Part shown: piece after piece, positions 6,500 through 46,256 of the stretch | Position numbering within the stretch: position 1 is the stretch's first letter | How the letters are laid out: each line of letters opens with the position of its first letter | Origin: a virus | Lineage: Duplodnaviria > Caudoviricetes | Length of the DNA stretch: 50,890 bases | IMG/VR virus record: IMGVR_UViG_3300032260_000007 | Location: 1-50,890 of that record | Strand: one strand, 5' to 3' | Made by a program: the position numbers and the translations under genes | The notes under the pieces: model-generated | The model's input: the letters and a program-made list of their open reading frames with translations, nothing else | Database searches by the model: none | Told to the model about the DNA's origin: nothing

Positions 6500-6690
6500 T
6501 AGAAATTGAGAGTACTCAAATTATCGGTGTTGTGGCTGATGAAGCAGATTTAGAATACAGAGTAGTAAACGGATACGAATACCAAATAACACTTGTTCAG
6601 GTTGCCGGTACAACTGATGTTTTAGGAATTAGGCCACAAGAAACATCAAATATAACAAATAAATACGAACATTATGGGCCGAAGTTTTGA
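6487..6690 (+). CDS. Unannotated small ORF, probable non-canonical (ATT/ATA) start
   Basis: Open frame IVEIESTQIIGVVADEADLEY...GPKF* fills the gap; GGAGGA lies 6 nt before ATT 6487. Confidence 0.45.
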   Translation: MSTIVEIESTQIIGVVADEADLEYRVVNGYEYQITLVQVAGTTDVLGIRPQETSNITNKYEHYGPKF

Positions 6691-6708
6691 TTAGGAAAGG
6701 TAAACCAC

Positions 6709-9520: not shown

Positions 9521-10003
9521 ATGGCTATTGAGTTAGTTCAGGCAGACGTACAGGCATATTTGCATAATACTAAATATAGACTAGGTAAGCTTGAAGATGA
9601 ATTGACAAGCTTTTCTGTTAACTATATAACTGGTAAAGTGCGTTCAAAATATGATATTTCTGGTTGGACTGACGCCACAAATACACCCCCTTTAATCCTT
9701 AACTTGATGAATATCTGGTATGCAAATCTGTACCTACGGCTGAAATCCTCAGAGGAAGACGGCTTTACTAAATATGCAGATTTTTTAGTTGGGTTGGTTA
9801 ATGACCAATGCCAAGCAATCGTTGATGGTGATGTAAGTTTGGAAGGCCAACTTACCGATCCAAATTCAGCTGTAGGTGCAGAACCAGAGTTTTTTCCAAC
9901 AAATGCAGCAACTACCATATGGCAAGAAGATCACAATGCCGATGGAAGTTCAGGCGCAGTTGGAGCGGCTACACAAGCATTTACAATGCAAATGGAGTTT
10001 TAA
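9521..10003 (+). CDS. Head-tail adaptor (Mu gp36-like)
   Basis: Position; TPPLI and AIVDGDVSL motifs. Confidence 0.65.
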   Translation: MAIELVQADVQAYLHNTKYRLGKLEDELTSFSVNYITGKVRSKYDISGWTDATNTPPLILNLMNIWYANLYLRLKSSEEDGFTKYADFLVGLVNDQCQAIVDGDVSLEGQLTDPNSAVGAEPEFFPTNAATTIWQEDHNADGSSGAVGAATQAFTMQMEF

Positions 10004-12745: not shown

Positions 12746-15532
12746 ATGGCACTATCAACTAGAGAGTTATTATTAGTTCTAAAAGCTAGAGATGAAATGT
12801 CTGCTATAATAGATAAAAATTCAGCAGCATTACAACGTATGGGAGCCATAGGGGAAACTACATCTAGGGCTATGGCAATAGGTACTGGTTTGGTTGCTAC
12901 TGGTACGGCTCTAAAAAACCTTGGGCGTGTGGCATTAGACTTTGGCCAGGATTCATTAGATGCAGCTAAAATGGCACAATCGGCCCATTCTCTAATTGCC
13001 ACACAAGCACAGAACTTAAATCTAGTTGGTAAAGATATTGCCGCCATGATAGAGCAAGTTGGTCGTGCTAGAGCCGTACCATTAGATGATCTTAGAAGCT
13101 CCCTATTTGAGATCCTTTCTACAGTAGAAACAGATGTACCGGGCGCAATTGAAATCCTTGATGCTTTGGGTATTGCTGGTGTGGCCGCTCAAACAGGATC
13201 GACGGCATTTGCCGGTGCTGGTACTGCATCTCTAAATGCTTTCGGCTTAGAAGCTGGTGATACACTTAGGGTTCTTGATGCAATGTTTAGAGCGGTTGAA
13301 CAAGGCCAAGGTAGTTATGATAACTTCGCCGCTGGTTTCGCTTCAGCTATTCCGTCTGCACAAGCATTTAATCAGACTATGGAAGACACATTTGCGGCTG
13401 TAGCACTTGTTACTAAAGCAACTGGTCTAACTGAAGCCGAAGCTGGTACAGCAGTAGCACGTGCATTTGACCTATTTAAGAAAACAGACATACGTAAAAA
13501 CTTGGCCGAGCTTGGTGTTCAGGTAGTTGATAGCCAAGGCGACTTTAGAAGTATTGTAAGCGTATTGGGAGAGCTACAAGGCGCACTAGGTGGTTTAAGT
13601 CCCGCTGCTAGAGAAGCCGCACTAGAAGATATTTTTGGTGCTAATATTCGAGCCTTTAGGTTCTTGAATCCTACAATTGAAAACTTAGAGCTATTTAACT
13701 CTGTAGTTAAAGAAGTCAATGCTGGCCTTGATGAAGGTAGCGGTATTTTAGGTGCTTATGCAATAGTAAGTAGAGATGCAGCAGCAGCCGAACAACAGTT
13801 CCAAAATAACTTACAACTAGTTAAAGAGCAAGTGGGCGCTGTATTATTGCCGGCTTATGTACAGTTACTAGAGATTGGTAATAGACTTATAGGAATGTGG
13901 GAGGGACTGTCAGAGTCCACACAAGAAACCATTATTAAGTTTGTTATGATTGTATCTACAGTAGCTGTTGTGGTCGGTACCATAATGACATTTGTTGGCG
14001 GCTTGTTACTAGCTAAAGCTATGTTAGCTTTCTTTGGCGTAACTTTAGGTGCTGTTATTGCTACTGCTGGTGTGGCCTTATTAGTGTTTGCCGCAATAGC
14101 AGCAGCAGCATATTTAATATATGCCAATTGGGATACAGTAGGTCCAATATTTCATAGTGTAAAAGATGCAGTTATAGCTTTCGGTCAAGCAGCTTGGTTG
14201 TGGATACGTGAAACAGCCATTCCCGCTCTACAAGAATTTGCCGCCAAGGTTGCTGAAATAGCCGAAATTGTATGGGCATTTGTTACTGGTACTATTGTTC
14301 CATTTGTGGCTGAAGTCATAGCTAAGATCATGGAACTTAAAGACGGAATTTTATCTGCCGTTGATTTTATTCTAGCCAAGTGGGACGAGTTTGTAGCTTG
14401 GTTAAATGAAAATATATTGCCTGGTTTATTGACAGTAATAGAAACAATAAAGATTGAATTTAACTCACTCAAAGAAGCATTCAACCAATCTTCTACAGAA
14501 ATATCTGCTATTTTAACTTGGCTGAAGGATGTCTTTGTATTAGCTTTTGATTTTATACTTATTTACATGCAGTTTGCATGGGAAGGTATTAAATTAATAT
14601 TTAGTATAGGTATGCTAGTTATTACTGATGTATGGGTTATTGCTTGGAATTTTATTAGTGATTATGTTGTTATTATATGGAATCTAATAACCGGTTTGTT
14701 AGATGGTGCCATTAAGATAATTTCAAATATAATTAAATTAGGCTTAGCTCTTATTCGTGGTGATTGGGGTGCGGCTTGGGATGCTATTAAAGGTATAGCC
14801 GCTGGTGCTTGGACAACAATAACAGCCATAATTAGAGCTGGCTGGGAACTGGTAAAACTTACATTCCGTACAGCAATAGCAATAGTTAAAGTTGTATTTA
14901 CTCTCCTATGGGAATCTCTTAAACTTACATTAAGTACAGCCTGGTCAGCAATGAAAGAAAGCACTGCCTCTGGATGGGAGTCTGTTAAAGAGTTCTTCAG
15001 ACTTGGTAAAACATTTATTGAAAACCTATTCAGTAATGCTAGTACACTTCTAAAAAATGCTGGTAGAGATATTATTAGCGGGCTTTGGAATGGAGCTAAA
15101 GAGGTTTGGGAAAGGATGAAGGGTTGGTTAACAGGTATAGGTAATATCATTACCAGTATTAAAGGCCCACCAGAAAAAGATAAAGTGCTACTAGTTAATA
15201 ACGGTAGGCTTATTATGAAGGGATTTCATAAAGGTCTATCTGATGGTTGGAGTGATGTTGAGCGCTACCTTTCAAACTTACCAATAGAACAACAAATGCA
15301 TTTTGGTGTTGCTGCTAGATCCAACGTTAGTATTGACCATATGCTTAGATCAGATGACGATGCCAAGACTGATGGTCTAATAGATGCTATACGTGAACTA
15401 AGCGCTAAGGTATCAGAGATGGAATCTGGCGTTAATGTTGATGGCGATCTATTGCTTACTAAGGTCGGTGGTAAAGGCACTGAAGATGACGATGACGATC
15501 TATGGGATAAAATAGAAAGATCTGGTATGTAA
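12746..15532 (+). CDS. Tape measure protein
   Basis: 928 aa, Ala-rich helical, periodic W/F, hydrophobic mid-segment. Confidence 0.93.
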   Translation: MALSTRELLLVLKARDEMSAIIDKNSAALQRMGAIGETTSRAMAIGTGLVATGTALKNLGRVALDFGQDSLDAAKMAQSAHSLIATQAQNLNLVGKDIAAMIEQVGRARAVPLDDLRSSLFEILSTVETDVPGAIEILDALGIAGVAAQTGSTAFAGAGTASLNAFGLEAGDTLRVLDAMFRAVEQGQGSYDNFAAGFASAIPSAQAFNQTMEDTFAAVALVTKATGLTEAEAGTAVARAFDLFKKTDIRKNLAELGVQVVDSQGDFRSIVSVLGELQGALGGLSPAAREAALEDIFGANIRAFRFLNPTIENLELFNSVVKEVNAGLDEGSGILGAYAIVSRDAAAAEQQFQNNLQLVKEQVGAVLLPAYVQLLEIGNRLIGMWEGLSESTQETIIKFVMIVSTVAVVVGTIMTFVGGLLLAKAMLAFFGVTLGAVIATAGVALLVFAAIAAAAYLIYANWDTVGPIFHSVKDAVIAFGQAAWLWIRETAIPALQEFAAKVAEIAEIVWAFVTGTIVPFVAEVIAKIMELKDGILSAVDFILAKWDEFVAWLNENILPGLLTVIETIKIEFNSLKEAFNQSSTEISAILTWLKDVFVLAFDFILIYMQFAWEGIKLIFSIGMLVITDVWVIAWNFISDYVVIIWNLITGLLDGAIKIISNIIKLGLALIRGDWGAAWDAIKGIAAGAWTTITAIIRAGWELVKLTFRTAIAIVKVVFTLLWESLKLTLSTAWSAMKESTASGWESVKEFFRLGKTFIENLFSNASTLLKNAGRDIISGLWNGAKEVWERMKGWLTGIGNIITSIKGPPEKDKVLLVNNGRLIMKGFHKGLSDGWSDVERYLSNLPIEQQMHFGVAARSNVSIDHMLRSDDDAKTDGLIDAIRELSAKVSEMESGVNVDGDLLLTKVGGKGTEDDDDDLWDKIERSGM

Positions 15533-31930: not shown

Positions 31931-34189
31931 TTAGACAGCAGCTTTAGCTTCTAAATTCTTTTTAGCTTCTTTGTTAGACTTAATTCTAACCCTAACAGAA
32001 ACAATTCTATGGTCATCATATATAACAAGATTACGGCCAACTAGCGTACTCATTACCCTATCCATGTCTCTAGCGTCCAACTTAAATGCACGCATAACAG
32101 CAGCTTTATGTACACCTTTTTCATTGGCACGTATAATGAACTGTTCTATGCTCATTAGCTTACGCTCAAAGTCAGTTAGACCAATATTAGATGCTACTTC
32201 CAGAGCGTAGTTCTTCCATATATCTACAAAATAGAAAGCTTTCTTTAACACTTTATCATCTATTATAATTTTAGAAGTTTGCCCATTTGCTAAAGTAGCA
32301 GCGATTAGCATTGCTGCTTTTAATCCTGATATACCTAACCTATTCATCATTGGCATCATGTATGCAGGTTGCTGTGTGGACTCACCAAACTTAAGCAACT
32401 TTTTTAGATACCTGTTAAAAAGTAACCAGGCAGAGTCGGTAAGCTCAACCTCATTATTTATTGGTATATTTTTAAATTTAAATTCTTCAAGATCAGTTGT
32501 TGGATATTGGTTTTTAATTTCAAATAATTCCTCTATAAGCTTGGTTCTTGCAGCCTGATTCTTCTTAGTTCTTGGCCCCATATCTGTCAAATCTTGGATG
32601 TTACGCTTAGCAGAAATAAAACAGAATCTTGGAAGAAAGCCAGATCTAACATGTATGTCAGTTAGAGCCGAATAGATACCCTCTTGAGTACCTCCACACA
32701 ACATAACAAAGTAAGGATTACGTATATCTATTTCTTCTTTAGATAGAGATCTCTTAGACCGTTTACCATCGTAAAGCTTGGTAAGCATTTCCATCATCCC
32801 TGCCTGATAATCTTTTCTCGACATTGAAGATAACATGCCTGAAAATTCATCACGGTGGAAAAGAGAAGCTCTGTCTTCACGCAGAGACATACGCCGACCT
32901 ATACCCTCAACGGTCCCATCTGATCCTAGCAAAGCTTGCTCATCAATTTCATTCAGGAAGTCCAGCGCCATCTCCATAGCCGTTGATTTACGGCTTGTAG
33001 TTGTTTCCCCTAAGATCATAAACCACAAGTTAGCTTTGATTTCTGAGTGACTTGTATAAAGCCTTAGCATTGGCATTAGGCAAGACAAGACCGTGAATAT
33101 ACCTGCTACATGATATTGTGGAGCGGCGTCAGTAGATTTAATAGCCCAATTTATATACTTGTCTACTATGGTTATAAATCCTTCAGCTTCTTGTCTATCT
33201 TTTTCTGATAGAAGATTATTGTAATCTTCTTCACCATCGCTATCACCAAAAAATTTCTTAGCATCTTTTTGCTTGCTAAGAGTAAAGCCGCCATCCCCCT
33301 CTTGTTTGCAAATTCTATATACACGTACAACGTCATCCCACAACTTTTGATCTGTAGGGAATTTATTACAAACTGCATCCTTGCAAATAAGTAATGTTTG
33401 CTCTTTACTAAAGCCAGCTTTATATAACTCTTTCATGAGTTGATATAATTGCTTAGAGCGATCTTCTGTTAGCTTGTCTTGGAACAGAGCACGTATTTTA
33501 TTACTTGTAATTTCCCCGTGTTGCTTAAGTATAGAGGCACCAGATACCTTTTTAAGCTTCTTTGGAAAAGGCTCTTTTGTGGTATTGACTATACTGTCAT
33601 GAGACTTTTTTGAATACTCATCCTCGACATTATCTAACGTGTATAACCTACTAACATTACTTTGTTCGGTGTCTATAGAGACTATATTTACCGGGTCATA
33701 CTTAAAGTTAAATGTGTTTGGTATTCTCAGTAATTGCGTTAAGTCCCATCCAGAGACATCGCAACCTTCATCCCTATGTTCGTACGCTATTACCCTATTG
33801 TAAAGCTCTATATCCTCTGGGTTTTGTTTATCTTCTAGTTTCCAGAAAGCTTGATACTTATTGCTAGAAGTTTCTAATACAACCGTAGGAGCCAATCTTA
33901 AAGCGGACGGCGGACACTCATCAAGATCGGCCCATAGAGTATTAGTTTCCCCAACAAAATCCTTTTTACGTTTACGTTCGATCAATGGTGTAGGACAGAA
34001 ATACATGTTATTGTATTCCATGTTTTCGTCTATGAAATCTAAAGCTTGTGGCAATTCAGTTTGACTAAAAAACCTTTGTTTAAATTCTCCATCGGCATTG
34101 ATTGAAGCTAAAGATATATACTCATATTTGCTAGGGTCCGTTATCCATAGTATAAATTTTAATCTTAAGTCCGTAACTTCAAATGACAA
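31931..34189 (-). CDS. RepB-type primase fused to a DUF3987-like P-loop helicase domain
   Basis: LWADLD, ETSSNKYQAFW, LLRIPNTFNFKY; GETTTSRKST, RDEF, SGFLPRF. Confidence 0.85.
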   Translation of the reverse strand: MSFEVTDLRLKFILWITDPSKYEYISLASINADGEFKQRFFSQTELPQALDFIDENMEYNNMYFCPTPLIERKRKKDFVGETNTLWADLDECPPSALRLAPTVVLETSSNKYQAFWKLEDKQNPEDIELYNRVIAYEHRDEGCDVSGWDLTQLLRIPNTFNFKYDPVNIVSIDTEQSNVSRLYTLDNVEDEYSKKSHDSIVNTTKEPFPKKLKKVSGASILKQHGEITSNKIRALFQDKLTEDRSKQLYQLMKELYKAGFSKEQTLLICKDAVCNKFPTDQKLWDDVVRVYRICKQEGDGGFTLSKQKDAKKFFGDSDGEEDYNNLLSEKDRQEAEGFITIVDKYINWAIKSTDAAPQYHVAGIFTVLSCLMPMLRLYTSHSEIKANLWFMILGETTTSRKSTAMEMALDFLNEIDEQALLGSDGTVEGIGRRMSLREDRASLFHRDEFSGMLSSMSRKDYQAGMMEMLTKLYDGKRSKRSLSKEEIDIRNPYFVMLCGGTQEGIYSALTDIHVRSGFLPRFCFISAKRNIQDLTDMGPRTKKNQAARTKLIEELFEIKNQYPTTDLEEFKFKNIPINNEVELTDSAWLLFNRYLKKLLKFGESTQQPAYMMPMMNRLGISGLKAAMLIAATLANGQTSKIIIDDKVLKKAFYFVDIWKNYALEVASNIGLTDFERKLMSIEQFIIRANEKGVHKAAVMRAFKLDARDMDRVMSTLVGRNLVIYDDHRIVSVRVRIKSNKEAKKNLEAKAAV

Positions 34190-34210
34190 TGCAAAATCTT
34201 TCTAGATTAA

Positions 34211-34247
34211 TTAAGAGTCCCAGACTGTAATAGCCTAGGACTCTCAA
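34211..34247 (-). terminator. Terminator-like hairpin after the SSB gene
   Basis: 13-bp stem AGAGUCCUAGGCU/AGUCUGGGACUCU. Confidence 0.55.
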
Positions 34248-34281
34248 TTTTATATAATTATATAGACAGTTGCAATATCAA

Positions 34282-34881
34282 TTAGATATCGTCATCTGAT
34301 TCATACTCGTCCAAATGCTTAAATCCTCTTACAACATTACTAGGTCCGTATTCTTCATTACCCTTTCTAACGCCTAACCTAACTGCCATCTCTACGCCGT
34401 TATCCACAATTTCATCACGCATAGCCAAGATGTTTAGATCCTCATCCAATTCATCTTCAGACCACAAACCAGTAGCCATATACAAAGTCTTCCAATAACC
34501 AACGGATTGCGGATGATGCCACAATGAGTAAGTTATAGACTTACCTTCGTATTGTTCATCATCTACAACTTGGAATTGCCATACGGTACCCCTAGTACCT
34601 TGTGGCATCTTTCCATCTGGCTTAGTGGTAATAACAGGTTTACCGCTGCTAGGCCATGAGGAAGACCAAGCAGTGACCATTACACGATACCAACCAGGTT
34701 TGATCGGCTTGTAGACTGGCGTTTCAGCCTCTTTTAGGTTTACAACAAATGAATCCAAATCATCATCGATTTCTTCATCACCGTATTCTTCATCACCATA
34801 TTCTTCTTCTTCTACTTCTTCTACTTCTTCTACTTCCTCATCTTCATATTCGTATTCTTCATTATCATTTTCATTAGCCAT
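34282..34881 (-). CDS. DUF669-like ssDNA-binding protein with acidic N-terminus
   Basis: PIKPGWYRV, WQFQV...YEGK, EYGPSNVVRGF; follows the AAA ATPase. Confidence 0.7.
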   Translation of the reverse strand: MANENDNEEYEYEDEEVEEVEEVEEEEYGDEEYGDEEIDDDLDSFVVNLKEAETPVYKPIKPGWYRVMVTAWSSSWPSSGKPVITTKPDGKMPQGTRGTVWQFQVVDDEQYEGKSITYSLWHHPQSVGYWKTLYMATGLWSEDELDEDLNILAMRDEIVDNGVEMAVRLGVRKGNEEYGPSNVVRGFKHLDEYESDDDI

Positions 34882-34884
34882 AAT

Positions 34885-36048
34885 TTAGTTATCCTCTATA
34901 AGCTCAAATATTTTTTTCATTGTAGGATCGGTAATTATTTCTGGTAGTTTAGTTGTATGATCCTTAGCGGCTATTCGTTTACCTTGTTGTGTTCTTAGTT
35001 TCCTCACTTTCTTTTCTACTCTAACTTCTTTACCCGCTCGGTTTACTTGTTTAACTCTAACAGTGTCGGTATACAAAAACCACACATTGTTAAACCTACC
35101 GATTAGATCGTTAGACAATTGGCCAGCAAGTGCCGGAGAAATAACATTAATGTTTCTGCCAACTTTTTGTTCTTCATACTTAGCATGACAAACAACAATA
35201 ATGTTAGCTTCAACCTTACGTAACTTATTCGCTATACGTAGCAACCTGGTTCTATTTTTACCATAGTCGGCTTGCTCTGGCTGATCCGGGTCTTTTTCTC
35301 TAGGATTGTCTTTGTTAGCTGCGACGGCGGCGGTTTCAACCAATACAGTATCCATTGACATAAACTCTGCCACCGTAAACGAATCAATCACAATAGTCTT
35401 AAAATCAAGCTCACCATTTAGTGAAAGCTTAAGAAGCTCATCGACAACATTTTCTAGGTCTTGATGGTCCAATGGCTCTACACGTTGAATACGGCCATCA
35501 TTTGATGCTTCAGGGTAAAACGATGCAATTGGGGCTATGCCTGAATCAGTATCCACAAATAGAACTGGACACATATCCGGTACTTCACATATGCCAGCGG
35601 CTAGAATGGTTTTACCAGTACCAGGTTCAGCGTAAAGCAACAAGTCAAAAAATGATGCTTCTGTAGGCTTGCGAATCTTAAGACCACCTAGATAACCAGG
35701 CTTAATAGTTGTTTGTGGCTTATCTTTCCTTACAACGGTCCTAGTTTTTCTTATCTTCTTATCTGGTAGAGCCTTAAAGCTCATTTTCAATTCATCAACT
35801 GAATCTGGCTTAGCCTTAGACTTAGGTTTCGTAGTCGGTTTAGGGGCCGGCCTAGCTGGTGCATCTGGTCGCTTAGGTCTGGCAGTTATTTTCCGCCTAG
35901 GACGCTTAGTTGGTTCTGTAGCTGCTGTTGGACCAGTGTTTGATTTAGCGGTTTTGGTAGTCTTGCGCTTAGTCTGTTTAGGTTTTGGCATTGGCACACT
36001 ACCAGCCAAATCGCTTAGCAGATTGTCTAATTCTATATCAGAACTCAT
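34885..36048 (-). CDS. AAA_24/Sak4-like recombination ATPase with a basic disordered N-terminus
   Basis: YAEPGTGKT, FVDTD, TIVIDS, DYG, VVCH, AKD motifs. Confidence 0.85.
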   Translation of the reverse strand: MSSDIELDNLLSDLAGSVPMPKPKQTKRKTTKTAKSNTGPTAATEPTKRPRRKITARPKRPDAPARPAPKPTTKPKSKAKPDSVDELKMSFKALPDKKIRKTRTVVRKDKPQTTIKPGYLGGLKIRKPTEASFFDLLLYAEPGTGKTILAAGICEVPDMCPVLFVDTDSGIAPIASFYPEASNDGRIQRVEPLDHQDLENVVDELLKLSLNGELDFKTIVIDSFTVAEFMSMDTVLVETAAVAANKDNPREKDPDQPEQADYGKNRTRLLRIANKLRKVEANIIVVCHAKYEEQKVGRNINVISPALAGQLSNDLIGRFNNVWFLYTDTVRVKQVNRAGKEVRVEKKVRKLRTQQGKRIAAKDHTTKLPEIITDPTMKKIFELIEDN

Positions 36049-36338
36049 AATGACTTTCTCTTGTTTATCAATTGTCTAGGTAAGTATGCAGATGTAACTC
36101 TTACTACATTGTAGTCTACACCGTAGTAAATGCCAACGTCATCAATCAAAATATCTTTAATTGATGACCAGGGTTTTAGGCCAGCAATAAATGGTACCAA
36201 TGAATGCTCTCTATGCACAACCCAAAAGTTATTTAGTATTGGTGTGGCACTAGCAGAGCTAAACTTTAAAGACTCTAAACTTATTGTAGGTACTACAATT
36301 TCAATCATAGTTCTGAATGTACATTGTGGTACTTTCAA
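36045..36338 (-). CDS. Hypothetical protein
   Basis: 97 aa ORF with ATGA overlap and GGAG SD. Confidence 0.5.
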   Translation of the reverse strand: MKVPQCTFRTMIEIVVPTISLESLKFSSASATPILNNFWVVHREHSLVPFIAGLKPWSSIKDILIDDVGIYYGVDYNVVRVTSAYLPRQLINKRKSL

Positions 36339-37422
36339 TATAAGCTATATCATCTTCTCCATTTATCTTTTTAGTGCAAGGTACAAAAAATTCACAACTC
36401 TTACATTGGTGGAATGCGTTTATGTTTGGGTAGATAAATGGATCGCCTAACATATCCATAGCTTCTAGAAGAATATACTCACCAATTAGTTTAAGCTGCT
36501 GTGCATCTCTATAACTTTCAATACGCTTAAAATATTGCGGTTCTTCAAAATCTTCTAAGAACCCTATGTAGTCTGCCACATCAAGATCATTGTCTTCGAT
36601 GGCTTGCATGTACAAATTATAAGTTGTTTTTTGGTCTTTGGCCTTAGATAGTTTTCCGCTCTTAAGAACATTTGGCGGTGATGGTGCATCTTTCAGAATG
36701 TAATTAAATTCGGTACCCATCACGTTAATGTCTAGCATACGCAATGCCCAATAATAAGCGCTAGCTTGTGTATCTCGTTCTAGCTTAGCTTCGGATGAGT
36801 AAGCAAAATTGCTAGTTGTTTTATGGTCTATGATGATGTAGGAGTCAAACCGATCATCGTATACCAGTAAGTCGATTATACCTTTGTATAAGACAACTTC
36901 ACCTTTATACATTAGAACGTGGCAATCCATTACATTATTATATTCTGTGCTAAATCCTGGCCTTAGAATTTTGCTTTGCTTTTCTGTTACCGGTATTGGT
37001 ACCTCAAAGTCAATTTCAGTTTTGACCGGCCTAATATGCTCATCAGCTTCAGATGCCCATTCAACATAGTTATCTATGATGCTAGGTCCAATTTTAATAT
37101 AGTCATCTATTTCTCTGAAGATGTCGCCATCAATACCAACACTGATTAGGTTTATCCTAAACGTAGTTAAGTAACTAACGAAAGCAGCTTTAGCTCTATT
37201 GATTTTAGCTATTGTCATACCCTTATCCCATGTTTCAGGATCATAGAGAATTTCCATAGCTTCATGCATGGCCGTGCCAAATTCATAATTCTTAATGGCA
37301 CCGATGTTTGAATAGTTGAGCCTATTCTGACTTGAATAATCCCACAACAGCCTGCACGTTCTAAAAGTGCTTCTATCAGTGGTACCAATGGCCATCAAAC
37401 TTGATTTGGTATCAGATTGCAT
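36301..37422 (-). CDS. PD-(D/E)xK (Cas4/RecB-like) exonuclease
   Basis: FRTC, FGTAMH, E, GIIDLL, IIDHKT, Q...Y, C..CEF...C. Confidence 0.88.
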   Translation of the reverse strand: MQSDTKSSLMAIGTTDRSTFRTCRLLWDYSSQNRLNYSNIGAIKNYEFGTAMHEAMEILYDPETWDKGMTIAKINRAKAAFVSYLTTFRINLISVGIDGDIFREIDDYIKIGPSIIDNYVEWASEADEHIRPVKTEIDFEVPIPVTEKQSKILRPGFSTEYNNVMDCHVLMYKGEVVLYKGIIDLLVYDDRFDSYIIIDHKTTSNFAYSSEAKLERDTQASAYYWALRMLDINVMGTEFNYILKDAPSPPNVLKSGKLSKAKDQKTTYNLYMQAIEDNDLDVADYIGFLEDFEEPQYFKRIESYRDAQQLKLIGEYILLEAMDMLGDPFIYPNINAFHQCKSCEFFVPCTKKINGEDDIAYIESTTMYIQNYD

Positions 37423-37468
37423 TAGGTTTTCTTTCAAGGTCTAAGAATGTTTTAATATCGTTTCCACT

Positions 37469-37497
37469 AGTATATCAAAATGATTCTCACTTTGCAA
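37469..37497 (-). promoter_or_regulatory. Sigma70-type promoter for the recombination/replication genes
   Basis: TTGCAA-N17-TATACT with extended TGn. Confidence 0.75.
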
Positions 37498-37500
37498 CTT

Positions 37501-37779
37501 CTAGATTTTATTTAGTCCAGATGTGCTCTTGCTAGACCAGTAATGCGTATTTGCAAGGTAACTCTTGGCTACTGGTCTTGTGACAATCTCCATTGCTTGC
37601 TTACCCTCAACTTGTGCCGGATGATACCAACGTGATTGTGGGTTAGTTAGACCAGAGCTAAAATCTAGGTCTTCAATAATGGATCGTATTTGGTTATCTT
37701 TTGTAATGACTCTAATAACAGCAATTACTAAAGCTACAATTGAAAACATCAAACTGTAAGCTATTGCTACTTCTGCCAT
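37501..37779 (-). CDS. Membrane-anchored hypothetical protein
   Basis: N-terminal hydrophobic helix. Confidence 0.55.
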   Translation of the reverse strand: MAEVAIAYSLMFSIVALVIAVIRVITKDNQIRSIIEDLDFSSGLTNPQSRWYHPAQVEGKQAMEIVTRPVAKSYLANTHYWSSKSTSGLNKI

Positions 37780-37804
37780 TTGTTGCCCCTATCTATATAT
37801 TATT

Positions 37805-39280
37805 TTATGCTAACTCACCACTAAGCATTTGTGCTACCCACTGCTTAGTGTATTCTATCTTGCCTAACCTAACCTCATCTATTGTATCGACTGTTACTAA
37901 GTCCCATACATTAATGATATTTTTTTGACCATAACGTTTAATTCTACCGATAGCTTGGTCATTCAGCGTTGGAGACCATGCACGATCAAAGAAAATAAGG
38001 TTGTGGCAGACTTCTTGTAGTTCATCTATACCAACTCCCCCGGCACCTAATGTTGATATAAAAACTCTACAAGTTTTATCTGTAAGGAATCGTTCTAAAT
38101 TAGCATCTTTAGTTCTCTGGTTCTCACGTCCGGTATAATACACATGACCAATTTTTGCTTTTTGAAGTGGTCCACTTAGCATATCAATAGTTTTTGAGAA
38201 TTGCGAGAAGACCAAAAACTTTTCGTCGCTATCTCCTATTAGTTGCATAGATGCATCAACTTTTGAAGATGGTGTCTTTAATCCATATGTATCTTGTTCT
38301 TCATCATAATAGACTGTACCCGCTGCAAATTGCTGCAATCGTTGTAACTGAGCAATCACTACAGATGCGGCTAAAGGTTCTGTTTCGGCAGGCTCGGTAT
38401 CAATATATGATCCGGCACCAATTTTTTCTATTACGTCATCTACTGTATCAAATTGAAATGCTTGATGACTTTCAACCCATGCCAGAAAATCGTTGTTCAT
38501 GTCATCGTATTGTTTACGTTGCTTTTTATTTAACTCAACTTCAATCCGTGTGACATTAACAGGAGGAATATCTAAGCCACATTCCTCAAGTAAAACTCGA
38601 TCATAAAAAGGTTCTATTTCCGGGTACCCAACATCAAACCAATCGCTAGATGGTCCATGAGTAATTACGTAATTAGCTTGTCTTACTCTACCATTAACTG
38701 TAATCCATGGTCTCTCACTATCAGTCATTGTATTAATGAACCTAGTGTAAGAACTATATTGGGATGGGTAAAGATAATTTAGCAGCGACCACAAATCTTG
38801 TGGCTTAGTTGTTATTGGTGAGCCGGACATCAAAGTACGATATTTACCTTTGATCTTCTTTATGGCTACTGCTTGCTTGGCTTTTCTATTTTTTATTCTA
38901 TGACATTCATCCACAATTATATGTGTGAAATTCTTAAACAGTCTATCATCCATCATAGCAACTGCTTTGTAATTAATCACATAAACATGATGGCTGTCAT
39001 CGAAAAGATTATCTCTGTCGCTATTGATGATGCGCTTAACTGATAAATCTGTTTCTTCCTCAAACCGCTTAACCCAATTTCTATGTGTTGGTAGTGGCGC
39101 AATAACAAGAGTCAAATGGTTTGGGTTAAAATTATGCCTTAGCCTTAAATCTCTTTCTATTGCAAACAGGGTTTTACCCGTGCCCATATCCCAACAGCAT
39201 AAAATATTACGCTTACTCGAAAATTTGGCTAGCGCATTCCGTTGATGTGTCCATAGATCAGTCTTTACCAGTTGAGGCAT
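37805..39280 (-). CDS. SNF2-family (SF2) helicase
   Basis: DMGTGKT, DECH, SGSP, VFSQF, GGVGID, QAIGRIKRYGQ. Confidence 0.92.
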   Translation of the reverse strand: MPQLVKTDLWTHQRNALAKFSSKRNILCCWDMGTGKTLFAIERDLRLRHNFNPNHLTLVIAPLPTHRNWVKRFEEETDLSVKRIINSDRDNLFDDSHHVYVINYKAVAMMDDRLFKNFTHIIVDECHRIKNRKAKQAVAIKKIKGKYRTLMSGSPITTKPQDLWSLLNYLYPSQYSSYTRFINTMTDSERPWITVNGRVRQANYVITHGPSSDWFDVGYPEIEPFYDRVLLEECGLDIPPVNVTRIEVELNKKQRKQYDDMNNDFLAWVESHQAFQFDTVDDVIEKIGAGSYIDTEPAETEPLAASVVIAQLQRLQQFAAGTVYYDEEQDTYGLKTPSSKVDASMQLIGDSDEKFLVFSQFSKTIDMLSGPLQKAKIGHVYYTGRENQRTKDANLERFLTDKTCRVFISTLGAGGVGIDELQEVCHNLIFFDRAWSPTLNDQAIGRIKRYGQKNIINVWDLVTVDTIDEVRLGKIEYTKQWVAQMLSGELA

Positions 39281-39282
39281 TA

Positions 39283-39495
39283 TTAACCTTTATTGTTCTG
39301 TGCTTCTTTATACCAATTCCTCAATGATTCATGAGATACGCTTATACCAGTAATATCTTTGACTTGAATTACGCAATCCATCCAGGAAATACCTTTGTTT
39401 CTAAGCTCATCAAGAAAAGGTATAAGTCCGAAACCTCTTTCCTCTATTAACTTACCATCAAGCATACTTCTAAGTCGATGTGTGTCTTGTCTCAT
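39283..39495 (-). CDS. Small HTH DNA-binding protein
   Basis: GISW...TGISVSHESLRNW. Confidence 0.7.
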   Translation of the reverse strand: MRQDTHRLRSMLDGKLIEERGFGLIPFLDELRNKGISWMDCVIQVKDITGISVSHESLRNWYKEAQNNKG

Positions 39496-39549
39496 TTAAC
39501 CTTCAAATGTTTGATTTTACTGTGAAATAAAAAAGCCGTCTAATCATAT

Positions 39550-40083
39550 TTAGTTAGAAGTGACTTAGGACTTAGTTAAGACAAGATCAATTGTTTTATC
39601 TCATTAACTATATGGATTCATTATAGTTAATGTTGCAGGTAGTCCTAAATCACTTCTAACTAACTAAGTGGGACACAGATATGGATATTAAACATGATAT
39701 TTATAGCCTTTATATCTGCATCCCACTTAGCGATCAGCAAACCGGTAGCCGTGTGACGGGATTGGTGTTACCGGTTCCTTCACCCTAGCGCCGTCACCAG
39801 AGCATTGCAAATGTTTGTTATTAGCAAGCCACATAGCGTCTCTACCAGCTTCTACACCCGCTCGATGGCCGGACACTACCCAAGGCTGGCGATGGGGCTA
39901 ACAGGTGCCTTAGCGGCTTGCTCTAATGCGTTTCAGGCTTAAGCCCTAATCAACATTGTTAGACAAGAATTGGCTGTTTCTGCTTGCCTCAAGCAACACC
40001 AATAAATAAGCAAAAAGCCCCCTGATAAACTTGACTAAGTGAAGGACGTGTTTACTTCACTAAGTAAGTTTAACCAGGGGGCT
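39550..40083 (-). ncRNA. Candidate large structured ncRNA of unknown class
   Basis: No ORF of 60 aa or more; at least eight stems, crossing pairings, and mismatches that become G-U pairs on the minus strand. Confidence 0.6.
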
Positions 40084-40177
40084 AAGTAGCAAATGGGTAA
40101 AGCTAGACGTTACCTACCTTAGCACCGCTAGCCGTACCACACAACCTACCACACAAGATTTATGTGGTGCCTGTTGG

Positions 40178-40402
40178 TTATTTGATATTGGTTTTCGCTT
40201 GCACAATAACATTACCACCGCAACCACTAAACATTGCATATACAAGTGGCGACTTTTCATCATTTACAACATCTGCATCGTCTTGCTCTAGAATCTCTAG
40301 AACAGTTCCAAAGCTTTCATCATCTACATCAATAATAATTGTTGGTACGGCGCTATCAACATTTTCAATTGCTGAAACTACCTGGTCAAAATTTACACTC
40401 AT
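40178..40402 (-). CDS. Hypothetical protein
   Basis: 74 aa ORF in operon. Confidence 0.6.
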   Translation of the reverse strand: MSVNFDQVVSAIENVDSAVPTIIIDVDDESFGTVLEILEQDDADVVNDEKSPLVYAMFSGCGGNVIVQAKTNIK

Positions 40403-40403
40403 T

Positions 40404-40718
40404 TTATTCTACGTTTCTGTCGTATTCACGACCTAGAGCTTCTTCTAACTTAATTCTACCCTCTGAATATGCACTTTGTGGTTTTTTTGGAAACTCTTTG
40501 TCTCTACCACGTTCACCACTTGCACGTTGAACTACTTCACCGTTTAAATCAGATTGAACAACAAATCTCCAACCTTTATTTAAACATAAAACATTTTGAC
40601 ATTCATAAACTGCTACGTCCATTGGGCCGCCCGTACTAGGTGATACAAGTCTTACAGACGTAATAAGGAATGTTACTTTGTCGCACACTACACATCTAGC
40701 AGCTTCGTCAAGTCTCAT
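40404..40718 (-). CDS. Zn-ribbon-like protein
   Basis: CVVC...YECQNVLC. Confidence 0.65.
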   Translation of the reverse strand: MRLDEAARCVVCDKVTFLITSVRLVSPSTGGPMDVAVYECQNVLCLNKGWRFVVQSDLNGEVVQRASGERGRDKEFPKKPQSAYSEGRIKLEEALGREYDRNVE

Positions 40719-41362
40719 TCTCCACCGGTTTCATCTAGATAGTTGACTAGAGAGAATGATTCAGACTCTACTAATTCATCATCGGACGCTATTTCATCTT
40801 GTGAATTTATAGGTGGACGTTCTTTAGGCCCAACTTTAACAAGTTCATCTATAATATCCTCAAACGGATCAGCCATAGAAACTAAGTCATGATCGACATC
40901 ATCACTAGCATCAATAGGCTTAACTGGTGCTGTAGCTCGCTGGTATTGATTTACCTGAGCACATAGATTTTCAATTTCATTTTCCAGTGCTCTTACACGA
41001 GATGTCAAACCTATTACTGCTTCTTCTAGATGAGCGGCTTTACTTAGAGAAGAACTTGATTGCCCACCTGCCCCACGTCCTCTATTAGCATTGTAGATAG
41101 CAGGTGTAGGTGGTCTTACTAACAAAAGTGTTGCTGGAATCCTACCTATTGCCGGTTCTAAAACTTCCATACAACCCATATTAATTAGTTTATTTCTTAT
41201 GGCTGTATGTAATCCCGGATTAATTCCAAGCTGACTAATTGCTTTACCAAAAGCCTGTTTAAAGATTGGCCTACGCAATTCATCTAGCTCATGCTCTTGT
41301 TCCAATATTGCATAAACTGCTTGGCAGTTCTTGAATATCTTTAAGTTTGCAATGTCTGGCAT
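40715..41362 (-). CDS. Putative winged-helix plus coiled-coil protein
   Basis: IRNKLINMGCMEVL...LVRPPT; coil; acidic tail. Confidence 0.6.
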   Translation of the reverse strand: MPDIANLKIFKNCQAVYAILEQEHELDELRRPIFKQAFGKAISQLGINPGLHTAIRNKLINMGCMEVLEPAIGRIPATLLLVRPPTPAIYNANRGRGAGGQSSSSLSKAAHLEEAVIGLTSRVRALENEIENLCAQVNQYQRATAPVKPIDASDDVDHDLVSMADPFEDIIDELVKVGPKERPPINSQDEIASDDELVESESFSLVNYLDETGGE

Positions 41363-41380
41363 TTACCCAATACCACTTTC

Positions 41381-41932
41381 TTAAGCTGATTTGCGAATTT
41401 CGTTGGCTAGTGCATGAGCGGCCTTAGTAAGAGATCGCAAACGAGATTCGGTTTGCTGAACCTTGCGCTGTACTCGTTCTGCTTTCCTTGATGCTAGCTT
41501 CTCATCTAGACTAAGAATCCACCTAAGACCATCCTTGATAGACACTAGCTTGCGGCCATCAGTGTGAACAATGGATGGGAAGTCTGACTTATCATTTGAA
41601 ATTGCGTTATAAATTGTTTGTGAAGTGATCGTATGATTAAAGGGTTCGTGTGACTCATCATCACTATCAGCATAGTAATTGACCCTAACCACAAAGTCTG
41701 CGATGGTTTCCGCACCTTCTGGGACAGGATGCTTAATTACCGGACCCGGCTTGCGACCACGACGCCGTGGGGCTGGCTCTGACTCATTGCCATCATCATC
41801 ATCAACGTCAATATCTTCGTCATCGGCATCTTCATCATCAAAGTCGGCATCATCGACTTCCTCAAAGTCTTCGACTTCTTCCTCATAATCTTCAGCATCA
41901 TCCTCAAAATCGTATGTTTCTACATCGCTCAT
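41381..41932 (-). CDS. DNA-binding protein: acidic N-terminus, AT-hook-like motif, Xis-like HTH
   Basis: RRRGRKPGP; QTIYNAI..FP...DGRKLV...LRW; GAGGA SD. Confidence 0.65.
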   Translation of the reverse strand: MSDVETYDFEDDAEDYEEEVEDFEEVDDADFDDEDADDEDIDVDDDDGNESEPAPRRRGRKPGPVIKHPVPEGAETIADFVVRVNYYADSDDESHEPFNHTITSQTIYNAISNDKSDFPSIVHTDGRKLVSIKDGLRWILSLDEKLASRKAERVQRKVQQTESRLRSLTKAAHALANEIRKSA

Positions 41933-42022
41933 AGCTTTATCCTCTTGTTGTTACTAGTGCTAGATACTCTACCGTATCAGTTTGTGGATCTGGAACCAAC
42001 CTGGCACCAGAATTTTTAGTTG

Positions 42023-42451
42023 TTAATTTAGAACCGCCTTAGCAATAGGATCACTAAGCTCACCACTGCCAAGGATCGTTGGGTTTATCAACCTTACATG
42101 ATACATTATTACATGGTACTGAGATGAAAAATTTAAATGTATCTCTCTTAGCATACCTAAAGTGGTCAAATACTCATTAACAATCTTAAGTGTTAAGTCT
42201 AGGTCTAAATCACAAATCCCTAACTTAAACTGGCGTATATGCCGCATTAAAGATTCAATATAACTAAAAAACCCATCAAGATGAATAACAACTTCTTCTG
42301 TAAAAGGTTCTAGATTGTAGCCTTCAAATAGTTCAGCTATTGATGGGTGCTCTAACTTTACATCTATTTGTGTAAACATTGCAGCACGTTTTAGAACATT
42401 AAATGTATCTGCTAGATCTTGGCACGAATTCAAGCATAAATTTAACATCAT
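42023..42451 (-). CDS. Hypothetical protein
   Basis: 142 aa ORF; first gene after the leftward promoter. Confidence 0.55.
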   Translation of the reverse strand: MMLNLCLNSCQDLADTFNVLKRAAMFTQIDVKLEHPSIAELFEGYNLEPFTEEVVIHLDGFFSYIESLMRHIRQFKLGICDLDLDLTLKIVNEYLTTLGMLREIHLNFSSQYHVIMYHVRLINPTILGSGELSDPIAKAVLN

Positions 42452-43295: not shown

Positions 43296-43906
43296 CTAAT
43301 ATTTGGATGATGCGGATTCTTACAGATGGCCTTGATGTGAACACAGAGCACATTTTTAGTGTCGGTCTATGTAATATGGCCAACATTAAAATGGGATTGC
43401 TGGCTACTCGTGGCCAAGACTATGCAATTGAACATACTCCATTTGACGATGGTTTTAGTCTAACTAGATGTCACTACAACTTAAACAATGCTCAACTAAA
43501 AGAGGAAGTAGCCAGATACATACATCAAATTATAGTTAGTAAGCCTAACCCTATAATCTTACTAGATGAGACGTTAATATCTGGACTTAGAAGCTTTGCT
43601 ATTAAAGATTATAAATGGTGGGACTATACCAGACCTAGTAAATCTGCTAATCCCGAGTATTGGTGGCGCTTATCACATGAAATAACGGTAATTTCTCCAA
43701 CACTTCTTGCTAAGGCTATCTGCCTAGTTTCAGGAATCGCTAACGCTGATCTAAATAGATTTGTCCCCGCCCATAGACAATTTGTCCCCACCCATGGCTG
43801 TACAACGGCTTTAAGCGCCGTGCAAGAGGATGCTCTTAGTTTTATGGAGCTTCTTAACGTGCATTGTATAAGCCTTAGCACGTTAGCATCACTTACACAT
43901 GACTAA
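43283..43906 (+). CDS. Possible inactive DEDDh exonuclease-like protein
   Basis: RILTDGLD...IFSVG resembles DxETTGLD..IIxIG; C-terminal TALSAV. Confidence 0.45.
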   Translation: MADMTNIWMMRILTDGLDVNTEHIFSVGLCNMANIKMGLLATRGQDYAIEHTPFDDGFSLTRCHYNLNNAQLKEEVARYIHQIIVSKPNPIILLDETLISGLRSFAIKDYKWWDYTRPSKSANPEYWWRLSHEITVISPTLLAKAICLVSGIANADLNRFVPAHRQFVPTHGCTTALSAVQEDALSFMELLNVHCISLSTLASLTHD

Positions 43907-46256
43907 TAGACACCCATTAGCAAACTGTTCTGAATGTCCATGGAACGTACCACAAGCTGGCTATGCACCAGTTGCCGGGCCAGAAGATGCACCTATTCTA
44001 CTCATTGGAGAATCACCTGGTAGGGGTGAAAAAGGAGTACCCTTTAAAGGTCCGGTTGGCTATGTGGTTAACCTTGTTTTAGGCAGAAATAAAATAGCCG
44101 CTAATAAGGTGAGAATGACTAATGTTGTGGCTTGTCATCCGCCGCATGAATTCGGTGAAGAATCAGATGCGCCACCGGCAGAAGTCATTGCATGTTGTAA
44201 GCCTAGATTGGAAGAAGAATTAAAAGGCCGTACTGCTATTGTTGGTATGGGCAATATAGCTAATAAAGCTATCCAAGATAAGACTGAAGGCATTACTAAG
44301 GCTAGGAAACGAGCACCAAGCAAGCTACCACAAGACCATAGGCTCGCCGGTACAATTTATGTGGCGACTGTAAATCCTGGTGCATGTATAAGAACGCCAG
44401 ACTATTTTAAGTCATTCAATGACGACATAATCAAGCTCAAACGTGCTTTAACACCAAATAACATCTATACCAGGTGGGAACCTACAAGATACGCCGTAGC
44501 TGATGATGAGGTAACAGCCAATAAGGTTCTTGAATCTATTTACCGTAATGCAGAGATGCTATCGCTGGATATTGAGTGTGGGGTCGATAAGGACGTCAAC
44601 CTTGCACATCCTGATGAGCTTCTATGTATTGGTATAAGCTATGAAGAAAACAAATCTTTTGTTATTGGTGAGCAAGCACTTAAATTTCAGTCTGTACGTG
44701 ACTGGCTATCAAGGATTCTTAATAAGCTTAAGATCATATGCCACAATGGTAAATATGATCTACAAGTATTGATGCGTTTTGGTGGGTTTAAGTTTAGGCC
44801 AAGACTTTACGCCGATACTATGATTGCCAATTATTGCATGGACGAAAGGCCGGGGCACCATGATCTGGAAAGTGTGGCATCCCAAAATTTAGGTACCCCT
44901 AGCTGGAAAGCAGAATTAGAGAAGTACCTAGATAAAGGTGATTCATATGCTGTTATTCCTAGAGATGTCTTATATCGGTATAACGCCTATGATGCTGCTG
45001 AAACCTTCAAGTTGTGGAGATTCCTAGAGAAAAAGCTTACGCCTAAGTTACGTGCTTTGCATGATAGGTTAATGTTGGTTTCTGATGCTTTAACATATGT
45101 AGAGCTAGATGGTATTCTTGTGGATGATGTCAAATTAGCCGAACTAGCTGAAGAATATGAAGCAATACTAGCTGATTTAGAAGAAGGTTTAAGCCGTTGG
45201 GTTGATAATCCAAATAGCGTTAAGCAAGTTGTAGAAGCGCTAGACGCTCTTGATTTGGATAATGAAACCACCGCTAAAAGGCATCTGAATATGTTACTTA
45301 GAGATGTCGAAGAAGGTACAGAAGCTTGGTATTTTCTGACTCTTATATTGCATCAAAGACTACATCAAAAGGTCTACGGAACCTATATTAAAGGCAATCA
45401 AAAACGATTAATAAACAGACATTTGCATCCTTCATTCTTTATACATGGCACCGTATCAGGCAGGTTAGCTTGCCGTAATCCGAATCTACAGAACCAACCT
45501 AGACAAGGTGTTAAGGATATATTTATTCCCAAGCCTGGCCACATATTTGTTCAATGCGACTACTCACAAGTTGAGCTAAGAGTTATAGCTTGTGAAGCTC
45601 AAGACAAGTATTTACAACTGGTTTTTAGAGACCCTAATAGAGACATACACGGCGAAGTGTCAAACACTCTATTCGGTGAAGGTAAATGGGATAGCGAAGG
45701 TCGAGTTAGGGCTAAGAGCTACGTATTCGGGTCTATATATGGTCTTAGTCCCTACAGTATTAGTCTAGATTTTGGTATACCTGAGCTTAAAGCCAGACGT
45801 GAACAGAACGCATTCTTTAGGATGATTCCAGACACAATGAAATGGCGACGTAAAGTTGTATCTGATTTGATGGCTAATGGCCAGATACCAGAGACGTTTT
45901 TCGGTCGTCAACGTAGATTGCGACTTATTACTAAAGAAACTGAAAAGAAATTAGCTAAAGAAGTGTTAGCATTTTATCCGCAAAGCACAGCTAACGATAT
46001 ATGTATGGATGCAATGAACAATATATCTAAAGCTTTTGAAGATACAAGCGCACGTCTTAGGGTTCCAGTCCATGATTCTATAACTGTTGAATGTCCGATT
46101 GAAGATGCTAAGGAGGTAGGCCAAATAATGAGACGTATAATGGAACAAACTGCAACAAACACATACTCTGATTATGTTCCATTTGAAGCTAAAGCTGAAT
46201 ATGGATTTACACTAGGTCAACTTGGAGAAGTTAAAGAAGACTCATTGCCAAGTTAA
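43899..46256 (+). CDS. polA: Family A DNA polymerase with N-terminal UDG-like domain and 3'-5' exonuclease
   Basis: CSECP/IGESPG/NVVACHPP (UDG); LDIE, HNGKYD, YNAYD (exonuclease); DYSQVELR, KSYVFGSIYG, VHDS (polymerase). Confidence 0.95.
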   Translation: MTNRHPLANCSECPWNVPQAGYAPVAGPEDAPILLIGESPGRGEKGVPFKGPVGYVVNLVLGRNKIAANKVRMTNVVACHPPHEFGEESDAPPAEVIACCKPRLEEELKGRTAIVGMGNIANKAIQDKTEGITKARKRAPSKLPQDHRLAGTIYVATVNPGACIRTPDYFKSFNDDIIKLKRALTPNNIYTRWEPTRYAVADDEVTANKVLESIYRNAEMLSLDIECGVDKDVNLAHPDELLCIGISYEENKSFVIGEQALKFQSVRDWLSRILNKLKIICHNGKYDLQVLMRFGGFKFRPRLYADTMIANYCMDERPGHHDLESVASQNLGTPSWKAELEKYLDKGDSYAVIPRDVLYRYNAYDAAETFKLWRFLEKKLTPKLRALHDRLMLVSDALTYVELDGILVDDVKLAELAEEYEAILADLEEGLSRWVDNPNSVKQVVEALDALDLDNETTAKRHLNMLLRDVEEGTEAWYFLTLILHQRLHQKVYGTYIKGNQKRLINRHLHPSFFIHGTVSGRLACRNPNLQNQPRQGVKDIFIPKPGHIFVQCDYSQVELRVIACEAQDKYLQLVFRDPNRDIHGEVSNTLFGEGKWDSEGRVRAKSYVFGSIYGLSPYSISLDFGIPELKARREQNAFFRMIPDTMKWRRKVVSDLMANGQIPETFFGRQRRLRLITKETEKKLAKEVLAFYPQSTANDICMDAMNNISKAFEDTSARLRVPVHDSITVECPIEDAKEVGQIMRRIMEQTATNTYSDYVPFEAKAEYGFTLGQLGEVKEDSLPS

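Follow-up and report, generated by a model that had tools for sequence, protein, structure and literature searches.

What does a 682-nt interval without a long open reading frame do inside a compact phage replication operon, and is it a structured RNA? The interval lies in a 50,890-nucleotide stretch of DNA (IMG/VR record IMGVR_UViG_3300032260_000007; hereafter, the window). This appears to be a complete, circular tailed-phage genome of 50.7 kb, since 148 nt are repeated at both window ends. It encodes a terminase, a major head protein, an endolysin and a family A DNA polymerase. The polymerase gene (43899-46256, plus strand) carries a fused N-terminal domain of the uracil-DNA-glycosylase superfamily, an arrangement also found in the closest relative. 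The nearest cultured phages share <30% identity with this phage in helicase and capsid, and sediment metagenomes provided one possible source run and one further run.

The operon is encoded on the minus strand. Genes for proteins of 183, 215, 104 and 74 aa precede the gap in this order. The 104-aa protein (40404..40718) is Zn-ribbon-like, with CxxC and C-x4-C motifs, and the acidic 74-aa ORF (40178..40402), which lies directly upstream of the gap, belongs to no Pfam or PHROG family. The gap is followed by a 70-aa ORF (39283..39495), which we take to be HTH-like by resemblance. This ORF has no Pfam or PHROG match, and its Atlas neighbors are unnamed phage proteins. Next comes the gene for an SNF2-family helicase (37805..39280), the first of a series that continues with a PD-(D/E)XK nuclease, an AAA_24 protein and a RepB-type primase. 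ARAGORN finds no tRNA or tmRNA gene in the window. A Pfam scan of 19 proteins, among them every neighbor at 31931-42451 apart from a few short ORFs, shows no reverse transcriptase family.

A sequence-only reading of this DNA had proposed that the interval encodes a large, pseudoknotted non-coding RNA. The gap (39496-40177) indeed contains no ORF of at least 60 aa starting with ATG, GTG or TTG, and the longest stop-to-stop frame wholly within it is 61 aa. Four of the proposed stems are present exactly as described: 39550-72/39641-63 (22 of 23 Watson-Crick pairs), 39602-12/39622-32 (11/11), 39664-82/39712-30 (17/19) and 39823-30/39915-22 (8/8). A stem also exists at 40016-44/40055-83, although without gaps only 23 of 29 positions pair, with one mismatch favoring each strand; when bulges are allowed the fold has 27 pairs. 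Compared with 20 shuffles per strand, the gap folds far better than its shuffled counterparts (z -8.9 for the minus strand, -7.8 for the plus), and windows from it rank 1, 3, 5 and 7 among 507 minus-strand genome windows of 200 nt. This signal comes from the three long stems, termed H3, H2 and H1, which individually yield z-scores of -7.1, -7.2 and -9.0.

Read in the direction of the operon, the gap begins with two weaker stem-loops (40088..40172, minus strand) that directly follow the upstream stop codon and lie outside the region first described; their z-scores are -2.2 on the minus strand and -1.2 on the plus strand. H3 (40016..40083) is a 27-pair bulged hairpin with a GC-rich base followed by five U residues. 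We infer that it is terminator-like, and also long enough to be a substrate for RNase III. Beyond the core and its tail lies H2 (39663..39731), a 20-bp stem with an AU-rich head and with G-U wobbles on the minus strand. It abuts H1 (39550..39663), a 23-bp stem that closes two inner hairpins as a three-way junction. At 39514..39542 (minus strand), a U-tract (39533-39528) coincides in part with a weak sigma70-like site that fits at 9 of 12 positions. This element is possibly an RNA 3' end or a promoter for the HTH gene; sites of that quality are not commoner than in shuffles. No clear promoter is found upstream of the core. The idea of one large ornate fold, as opposed to independent hairpins in a row, gains no support.

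Could these stems have arisen by chance or by neutral inverted duplication, with no selected function? A short unit, ACTTAG, is repeated among them (seven occurrences versus 0.5 expected), as local duplication would give, and other stems of 13-19 bp exist elsewhere in the genome. Nevertheless, three separate stems reach z-scores of -7 to -9, their wobbles are biased by strand, and a structured gap occurs at the same position in the closest relative, which together make a purely neutral origin extremely unlikely.

The strand bias was part of the original proposal, which held that C-A mismatches in the long stems become G-U pairs on the minus strand and so favor an RNA co-oriented with the flanking genes. 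All three mismatches are at the places described, and all convert to G-U on the minus strand. In stems detected without regard to strand, wobbles number three G-U and no C-A; those of H3, which this detector missed, are balanced 1:1. When the detected stems of the gap in the closest relative are included (five G-U, no C-A), the totals become eight and none. This excess of G-U on the transcribed strand favors selection on that strand, and the co-orientation of the RNA with the operon is upheld.

The same wobbles bear on the possibility that the gap is a DNA element, whether an origin of replication (possibly RNA-primed) or an array of operators, that is read by the phage primase, HTH protein or helicase. 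The location in a replication operon encoding a RepB-type primase fits this view. So do repeated motifs: at least four copies of TTAGA[AC] fall within 200 nt in 18 of 86 related loci, where the clusters are often inverted repeats before a small gene and resemble operators or iterons. The window has four copies at 39468-39654, tied as its densest cluster, and the palindrome ACTWAGT occurs four times in the gap (16 copies in the genome versus 10.9 expected). However, this motif cluster is weak, as another group of four lies at 31931, and the gap of the closest relative has one TTAGA[AC] and no ACTWAGT. The heads of the stems are branched, and the wobbles favor G-U on the transcribed strand, although single-stranded DNA could produce a similar bias. 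We therefore regard a DNA element as quite improbable for the cassette as a whole; it may fit the H1 end. In the related loci, there is one dense TTAGA[AC] cluster per locus, for example in L009 (3485), L016 (4072), L037 (2826), L038 (713), L055 (1093), L057/L061 (2556), L072 (2629) and L080 (3732), among others and in both orientations. A small gene carrying an ITPV[EN]YG motif often follows closely, and the clusters are candidate operator or origin arrays in their own right.

Between H3 and H2 lies a core of 243 nt (39761..40003, minus strand). As had been noted, it is rich in GC: its 50.6% compares with 39.1% for the genome, and only 1.2% of windows of equal size reach this value. A closing helix of 9-12 bp (40003-39992/39772-39761) is predicted, and it is present in the unconstrained fold of 39728-40008, where it closes the 243-nt domain. 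The interior is predicted to be multi-branched, with a 10-bp helix (39922-13/39832-23), and its fold is poorly defined. A 29-nt 3' tail (39732..39760, 62% GC) may pair back with 39797-91 and 39777-69, or may instead fold locally. The description of the gap as almost fully base-paired is not borne out in this region. The 276-nt segment 39733-40008 folds no better than shuffles (z +0.74), the windows at 39701 and 39801 have z-scores of only -0.8 and -0.7, and the core contains four Watson-Crick helices of at least 7 bp against a shuffle mean of 1.9 (P 0.12).

The crossing helices said to create a double pseudoknot all exist in the sequence, without a single mispair: 39740-47/39769-76 (8/8), 39753-59/39791-97 (7/7) and 39761-69/39995-40003 (9/9). 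Whether they form together is another matter. Base 39769 is used by two of the three, the long-range helix reaches 12 bp only by sacrificing the AACCGGTA helix, whose 5' strand it uses, and the GTGACGG strand alternatively forms a local 9-bp hairpin. Because helix extension and the local hairpin compete for the same strands, and with the core z-score at +0.74, we treat the double pseudoknot as one possible predicted state of the core rather than as its established fold. Of 2000 dinucleotide shuffles, 11 contain three mutually crossing helices with at least 24 pairs, and 3.4% contain a crossing triple of any kind; the former figure must be discounted, since the pattern was picked by eye and post hoc. 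In 2.94 Mb of other loci, a looser descriptor is matched at least 65 times, with redundancy among the matches.

Natural variation is provided by a second strain, X2, which differs from the window at 18 of 2457 nt around the gap. Ten of these differences are in the gap, all at 39793-39990, and none falls in H1, H2 or H3 or in the arms of the closing helix. Within the gap, variability is thus highest in the core, at 10 of 198 nt versus 96 of 13,851 nt over five long pieces; clusters of differences are also seen in coding genes, so a recombination tract can explain the one in the core. Two changes fall in helices of the sequence-only reading, both C to U opposite G, and the change within the 10-bp helix is of this kind. 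The change at 39793 leaves one crossing helix paired as U-G and fits a loop position equally well. Random sets of changes kept the fold as well as the X2 set did in 31 of 120 trials with free folding and in 20 of 120 with the closing helix forced, such that the core changes are not significantly structure-preserving (p 0.17-0.26). The pattern in X2 supports a putative constraint on the long stems.

The window has no match to Rfam at the gathering score, and its candidate structured RNA is absent from that database. A relaxed scan with Rfam 15 returned only nine weak matches of miRNA, sRNA or snoRNA type (E 0.2-6.8). The models RF02032 (GOLLD) and RF03072 (raiA) give no match in the gap. RF03087 (ROOL) also gives none there, but its control was silent too, and this result alone is uninformative. 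In agreement with the sequence-only reading, neither ARAGORN nor model searches reveal hallmarks of tRNA, tmRNA, RNase P or group I/II introns in the gap. At E 10, RF00010 (RNase P) finds no candidate there, with a control that matched 11 of 14 genomes; RF00023 (tmRNA) has no match there; and RF00028 and RF00029 match only elsewhere, below the cut-off. Both ORFs flanking the gap are whole and colinear with their orthologs in the closest relative, as judged in a test for an intron. Resemblances to known RNAs that were noticed by eye did not hold up. RNase P RNA has a P4 pseudoknot with conserved CR-I and CR-V, enclosed by P1; a resemblance to P4 near 39878-69 lacks the conserved adenosines and is altered in strain X2, and resemblances to group II domain V (plus strand, 39748-77), a T-box and a tRNA acceptor stem failed in model searches. 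HDV-like ribozymes have a nested double pseudoknot of P1, P1.1, P2, P3 and P4 within ~60-100 nt; here, three mutually crossing helices extend over 265 nt, and there is no Rfam match to that class.

These comparisons weigh on the suggestion that the core acts as a catalyst and adopts the proposed double pseudoknot, be it as a ribozyme of a new kind or as a highly diverged version of RNase P, group I or HDV-like RNA. Such an RNA would offer perfect crossing helices like the three found here (9, 8 and 7 bp), which are rarely equaled in shuffles (11/2000), the X2 change at 39793 preserves one of them as U-G, and pseudoknotted ribozymes often lack a nested-fold signal. Yet the four models for RNase P, group I/II introns and tmRNA are unmatched in the gap at E 10, nor does the all-family scan report these families there, and the strand order of the helices agrees with neither the P3/P7 arrangement of group I introns nor the HDV-like one. 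One base is common to two of the helices, which also face competition from local hairpins, and the change at 39793 is equally at home in a loop. With no ribozyme signature found, the ribozyme role once suggested gains no support, and we consider catalysis highly improbable.

No description of the element was found in the published literature searched. The four supplement files searched of a catalog of viral structured RNAs (PMC10690425) lack the short core motifs; their tables may not contain sequences, and the element may overlap with an entry in that catalog. We conclude that the gap element is real, uncataloged and probably of the RNA level, as a candidate founded on a two-genome case: the window phage and its closest relative, L164.

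L164 was located by a profile search with the Zn-ribbon protein and has 49% identity to it in this 104-aa marker. It is a 49,490-bp phage contig within a bacterial genome bin and shares 35 ORF matches with the window, representing ~27 real genes with 27-55% identity. The contig (G051:C37; L164, L239-L241) is 49.5 kb, phage-like and placed in a cyanobacterial genome bin, which we do not take as evidence of the host because the contig may be mis-binned. Its orthologs of the 74-aa and 70-aa ORFs are 28% and 33% identical, respectively, and the former likewise stands immediately before a gap, of 565 nt (6572-7136). This gap contains a terminator-like hairpin, a promoter-like site (TTGCCA-17-TATAGT) and long stems. 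Its core, 112 nt in length, forms a three-way junction that a 12-bp helix closes, and its last hairpin has six U residues. The z-scores are -7.8 for the gap and -4.3 for its core, and the gap has no Rfam match. The gaps of the two phages do not align (p 0.15-0.5), and nhmmer finds no match between them. A model of the L164 core, termed R2, ranks H1 best in 8 kb of the window at a score that is not significant (E 0.13), and H1 and the L164 core have the same three-way shape and size. Thus, position and architecture are kept between the two gaps, and sequence is not. L164 also contains a second structured gap (4860-5056), with a rod of ~130 nt, upstream of its ortholog of the 183-aa gene.

Much of this evidence can also be read as operon punctuation only. 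In that case H3 would terminate transcription, the stems H2 and H1 would process or stabilize the HTH-SNF2 message that follows, and the core would have no fold of its own, being a decayed insert or a passive spacer. All of the folding signal resides in the long stems (core z +0.74), H3 has the GC-rich base and U5 run of a terminator, the core drifts while the stems are invariant in strain X2, and no sequence is conserved with the L164 gap. It is harder to reconcile a passive spacer with a core whose GC content is in the top 1.2% although the spacers of this genome are AT-rich, with the 12-bp helix that closes it, or with crossing helices reproduced in just 11 of 2000 shuffles. Moreover, 682 nt is large for a compact operon, and the promoter-like site and final U-tract of the L164 cassette are what an independent RNA gene would carry. 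On balance, punctuation alone appears somewhat unlikely.

No homolog of the core emerged from any search of more distant sequences. A blastn search of 50,697 phage records gave one 28-nt match (E 0.8), a plasmid search gave two 36-nt matches that lie inside coding genes, and an exact 22-mer had no match in IMG/VR. We assembled 80 IMG/VR loci with related SNF2 genes (30-41% identity). The best blastn and nhmmer matches among them, in L004 and L042, are within ORFs and were rejected, and a DNA search of 50 of the 80 whole records yielded 0 of 50. R1, a single-sequence covariance model whose only positive control is its own source, found nothing in 86 loci, in 50 whole records or in 100 of 120 pattern loci, and gave nothing useful with L164; R2 found nothing in 87 sources. 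Two looser patterns, for which 120 of ~9000 and 120 of ~1400 stretches were covered, contributed to a set of 316 pattern-derived and other later loci in which nhmmer with the core had 0 matches. A metagenome scan of 1 of 64 parts returned mostly distant helicases, and alignments of the Zn-ribbon or 74-aa proteins revealed no confirmed close relative in IMG/VR. One motif common to a 5' stem-loop and the L164 core (p 0.015) was attributed to chance as one of more than 30 comparisons; in IMG/VR it occurs at 71 loci, nearly all in long open frames and none similarly placed.

The relatives do provide information on the setting. It had been suggested that the RNA acts with the adjacent HTH, Zn-ribbon or SNF2 proteins, but distant relatives such as L004 keep these genes without such an RNA, small ORFs filling the interval from Zn-ribbon to SNF2, and in L164 three other genes intervene between the gap and the HTH gene. 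Many relatives carry tRNA genes upstream of SNF2, and stems of 14-17 bp come directly after tRNAs in L004, L044 and L064/L067. Long stems follow only 6 of 70 tRNA calls, versus 13 of 600 random positions, where the calls were made at a relaxed ARAGORN threshold and some are false; this association is therefore a lineage trait, and not a family-wide rule.

We favor a model in which the gap encodes several stem-closed RNA modules in a row, from which RNase III likely releases a small, stable RNA comparable to RNAC and RNAD of phage T4, and we give this model an even chance of being correct. The gap would be transcribed from the minus strand together with the operon, partly past H3, and the transcript would fold as a row of modules. 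The host RNase III, presumably present, would then cut the long stems H3, H2 and H1, leaving 2-nt 3' overhangs. These stems are at or near the size that this enzyme cleaves, and the core would be released as a small, stable RNA of ~245-275 bases with base-paired ends. The minimum duplex given for RNase III in PMC5371410 is 22 nt, which H1 (23 bp) and H3 (27 pairs with bulges) exceed; H2, at 20 bp, reaches 22 only with extension or when stacked on H1. The same cuts would separate the upstream message from the HTH-SNF2-nuclease message. The freed core RNA would probably bind or decoy a protein, or serve as a scaffold, and such a job is the most plausible by elimination, since the core has no ORF, no antisense match and no ribozyme signature. 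An antisense target in the phage is not expected, as no exact match of more than 12 nt links the gap to the rest of the genome.

Several observations argue for this modular reading: the z-scores of the stems, the G-U bias, the GC content of the core, the closing helix that appears in unconstrained folding, the L164 cassette at the same place, the tRNAs upstream of SNF2 in relatives and the stems left invariant in X2. Others weaken it. The core z-score is +0.74, searches produce no core homolog, and the L164 gap is unalignable, whereas a conserved RNA usually aligns at 43-49% protein identity. Variation in X2 is highest in the core and is not significantly structure-preserving, the link between tRNAs and stems is not family-wide, and no clear promoter is evident upstream of the core. 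In addition, the U5 run of H3 could stop transcription before the core is reached.

Among known systems, T4 RNAC and RNAD offer the nearest parallel. These are stable small RNAs of unknown role from the T4 tRNA region (PMC3014915). Like them, the present element is non-coding and sits in a phage region with tRNAs, here only in the relatives, upstream of SNF2. Unlike them, it is larger and modular and belongs to a genome without tRNA genes; the sequences were compared by the Rfam scan only. The resemblance to GOLLD (RF02032) and ROOL (RF03087), whose hallmarks include abundant transcripts and homo-multimers, is looser. Those RNAs are phage-borne, large, non-coding and of unknown function, with predicted pseudoknots and with tRNA islands nearby, and are 600-800+ nt long, conserved and rich in covariation (bioRxiv 10.1101/2024.12.08.627333). 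By comparison, the gap spans 682 nt but its core only 243-276 nt, the core is unconserved, and pairing is mostly in simple long stems. The RNase III stems of T7 early RNA and rRNA precursors are, like ours, intercistronic and slightly imperfect duplexes of ~20 bp or more (PMC5371410); unlike them, our candidate processing stems are arranged in tandem around a 243-nt non-coding core. Finally, the 5' UTR motifs bound by Aca proteins are likewise structured RNAs directly upstream of a small HTH-like phage gene (PMC13551039), but our element is far larger, and in L164 the cassette and the HTH gene have three genes in between. The general searches made identified no anti-CRISPR gene in the window.

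A bolder version, which we consider clearly unlikely, holds that this is a fast-evolving array of stem-closed modules that the phage group carries in a fixed operon slot, cut into separate RNAs of which the largest would be a new 275-nt class. Under the same doubtful version, the 275-nt module would contain three crossing helices or act as a two-state switch, and its hypervariable interior might be an interchangeable decoy or guide against host defense. Phages carry large RNAs whose function is an open question, and screens built on covariation miss elements that keep position and architecture while replacing sequence, the pattern shown by these two related phages. If the modules yield stable RNAs, the locus becomes a compact test for interchangeable phage RNA decoys; if they do not, it amounts to a terminator and processing region more elaborate than usual.

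Some structured elements noted in passing in the related loci are distinct from the gap. One recurs near SNF2 genes, in L045 (4265-4548), L055 (4200-4460), L063 (100-365), L047 (4320-4610), L077 (3320-3555), L082 (4330-4620), L062 (4350-4420) and L037 (8660-8720). It has a long stem between CCTGAACG and CCTTGAG, a GGAGG sequence, a tiny ATG-started frame that itself folds, as DNA, into two hairpins, and a long hairpin that ends at the next ribosome site. It has no Rfam match at gathering in the scanned loci, and looks alignable and covarying. In L084 (3330-3720), a non-coding stretch of ~400 nt, GC-rich and highly structured, lies upstream of a gene resembling that of the 215-aa protein. It has GNRA-type loops, a terminator and a long stem that closes it, and again no Rfam match. 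Odd tRNA-like genes occur in L018 (1150-1291), L004 (1217-1276 and 1348-1437), L039 (1689-1801) and L087 (695-784); one has a structured insert of ~70 nt in the anticodon arm, one lacks the anticodon arm, and others have enlarged arms.

Elsewhere in the window, the bipartite motif TGAAAT-N(15-16)-GCCAC is present in five intergenic copies (26439, 26558, 29853, 46404 and 46458, plus strand). All have one orientation, beside genes of either strand, and the motif was not found in the closest relative. Near-perfect inverted repeats of 13-19 bp spanning 150-210 nt are located at 2097-2308, 3101-3297, 9727-9882 and 12901-13081. Three of these sit inside the terminase, head-tail and tape-measure genes, and the 200-nt segment at 3101 is among the best-folding of the genome.
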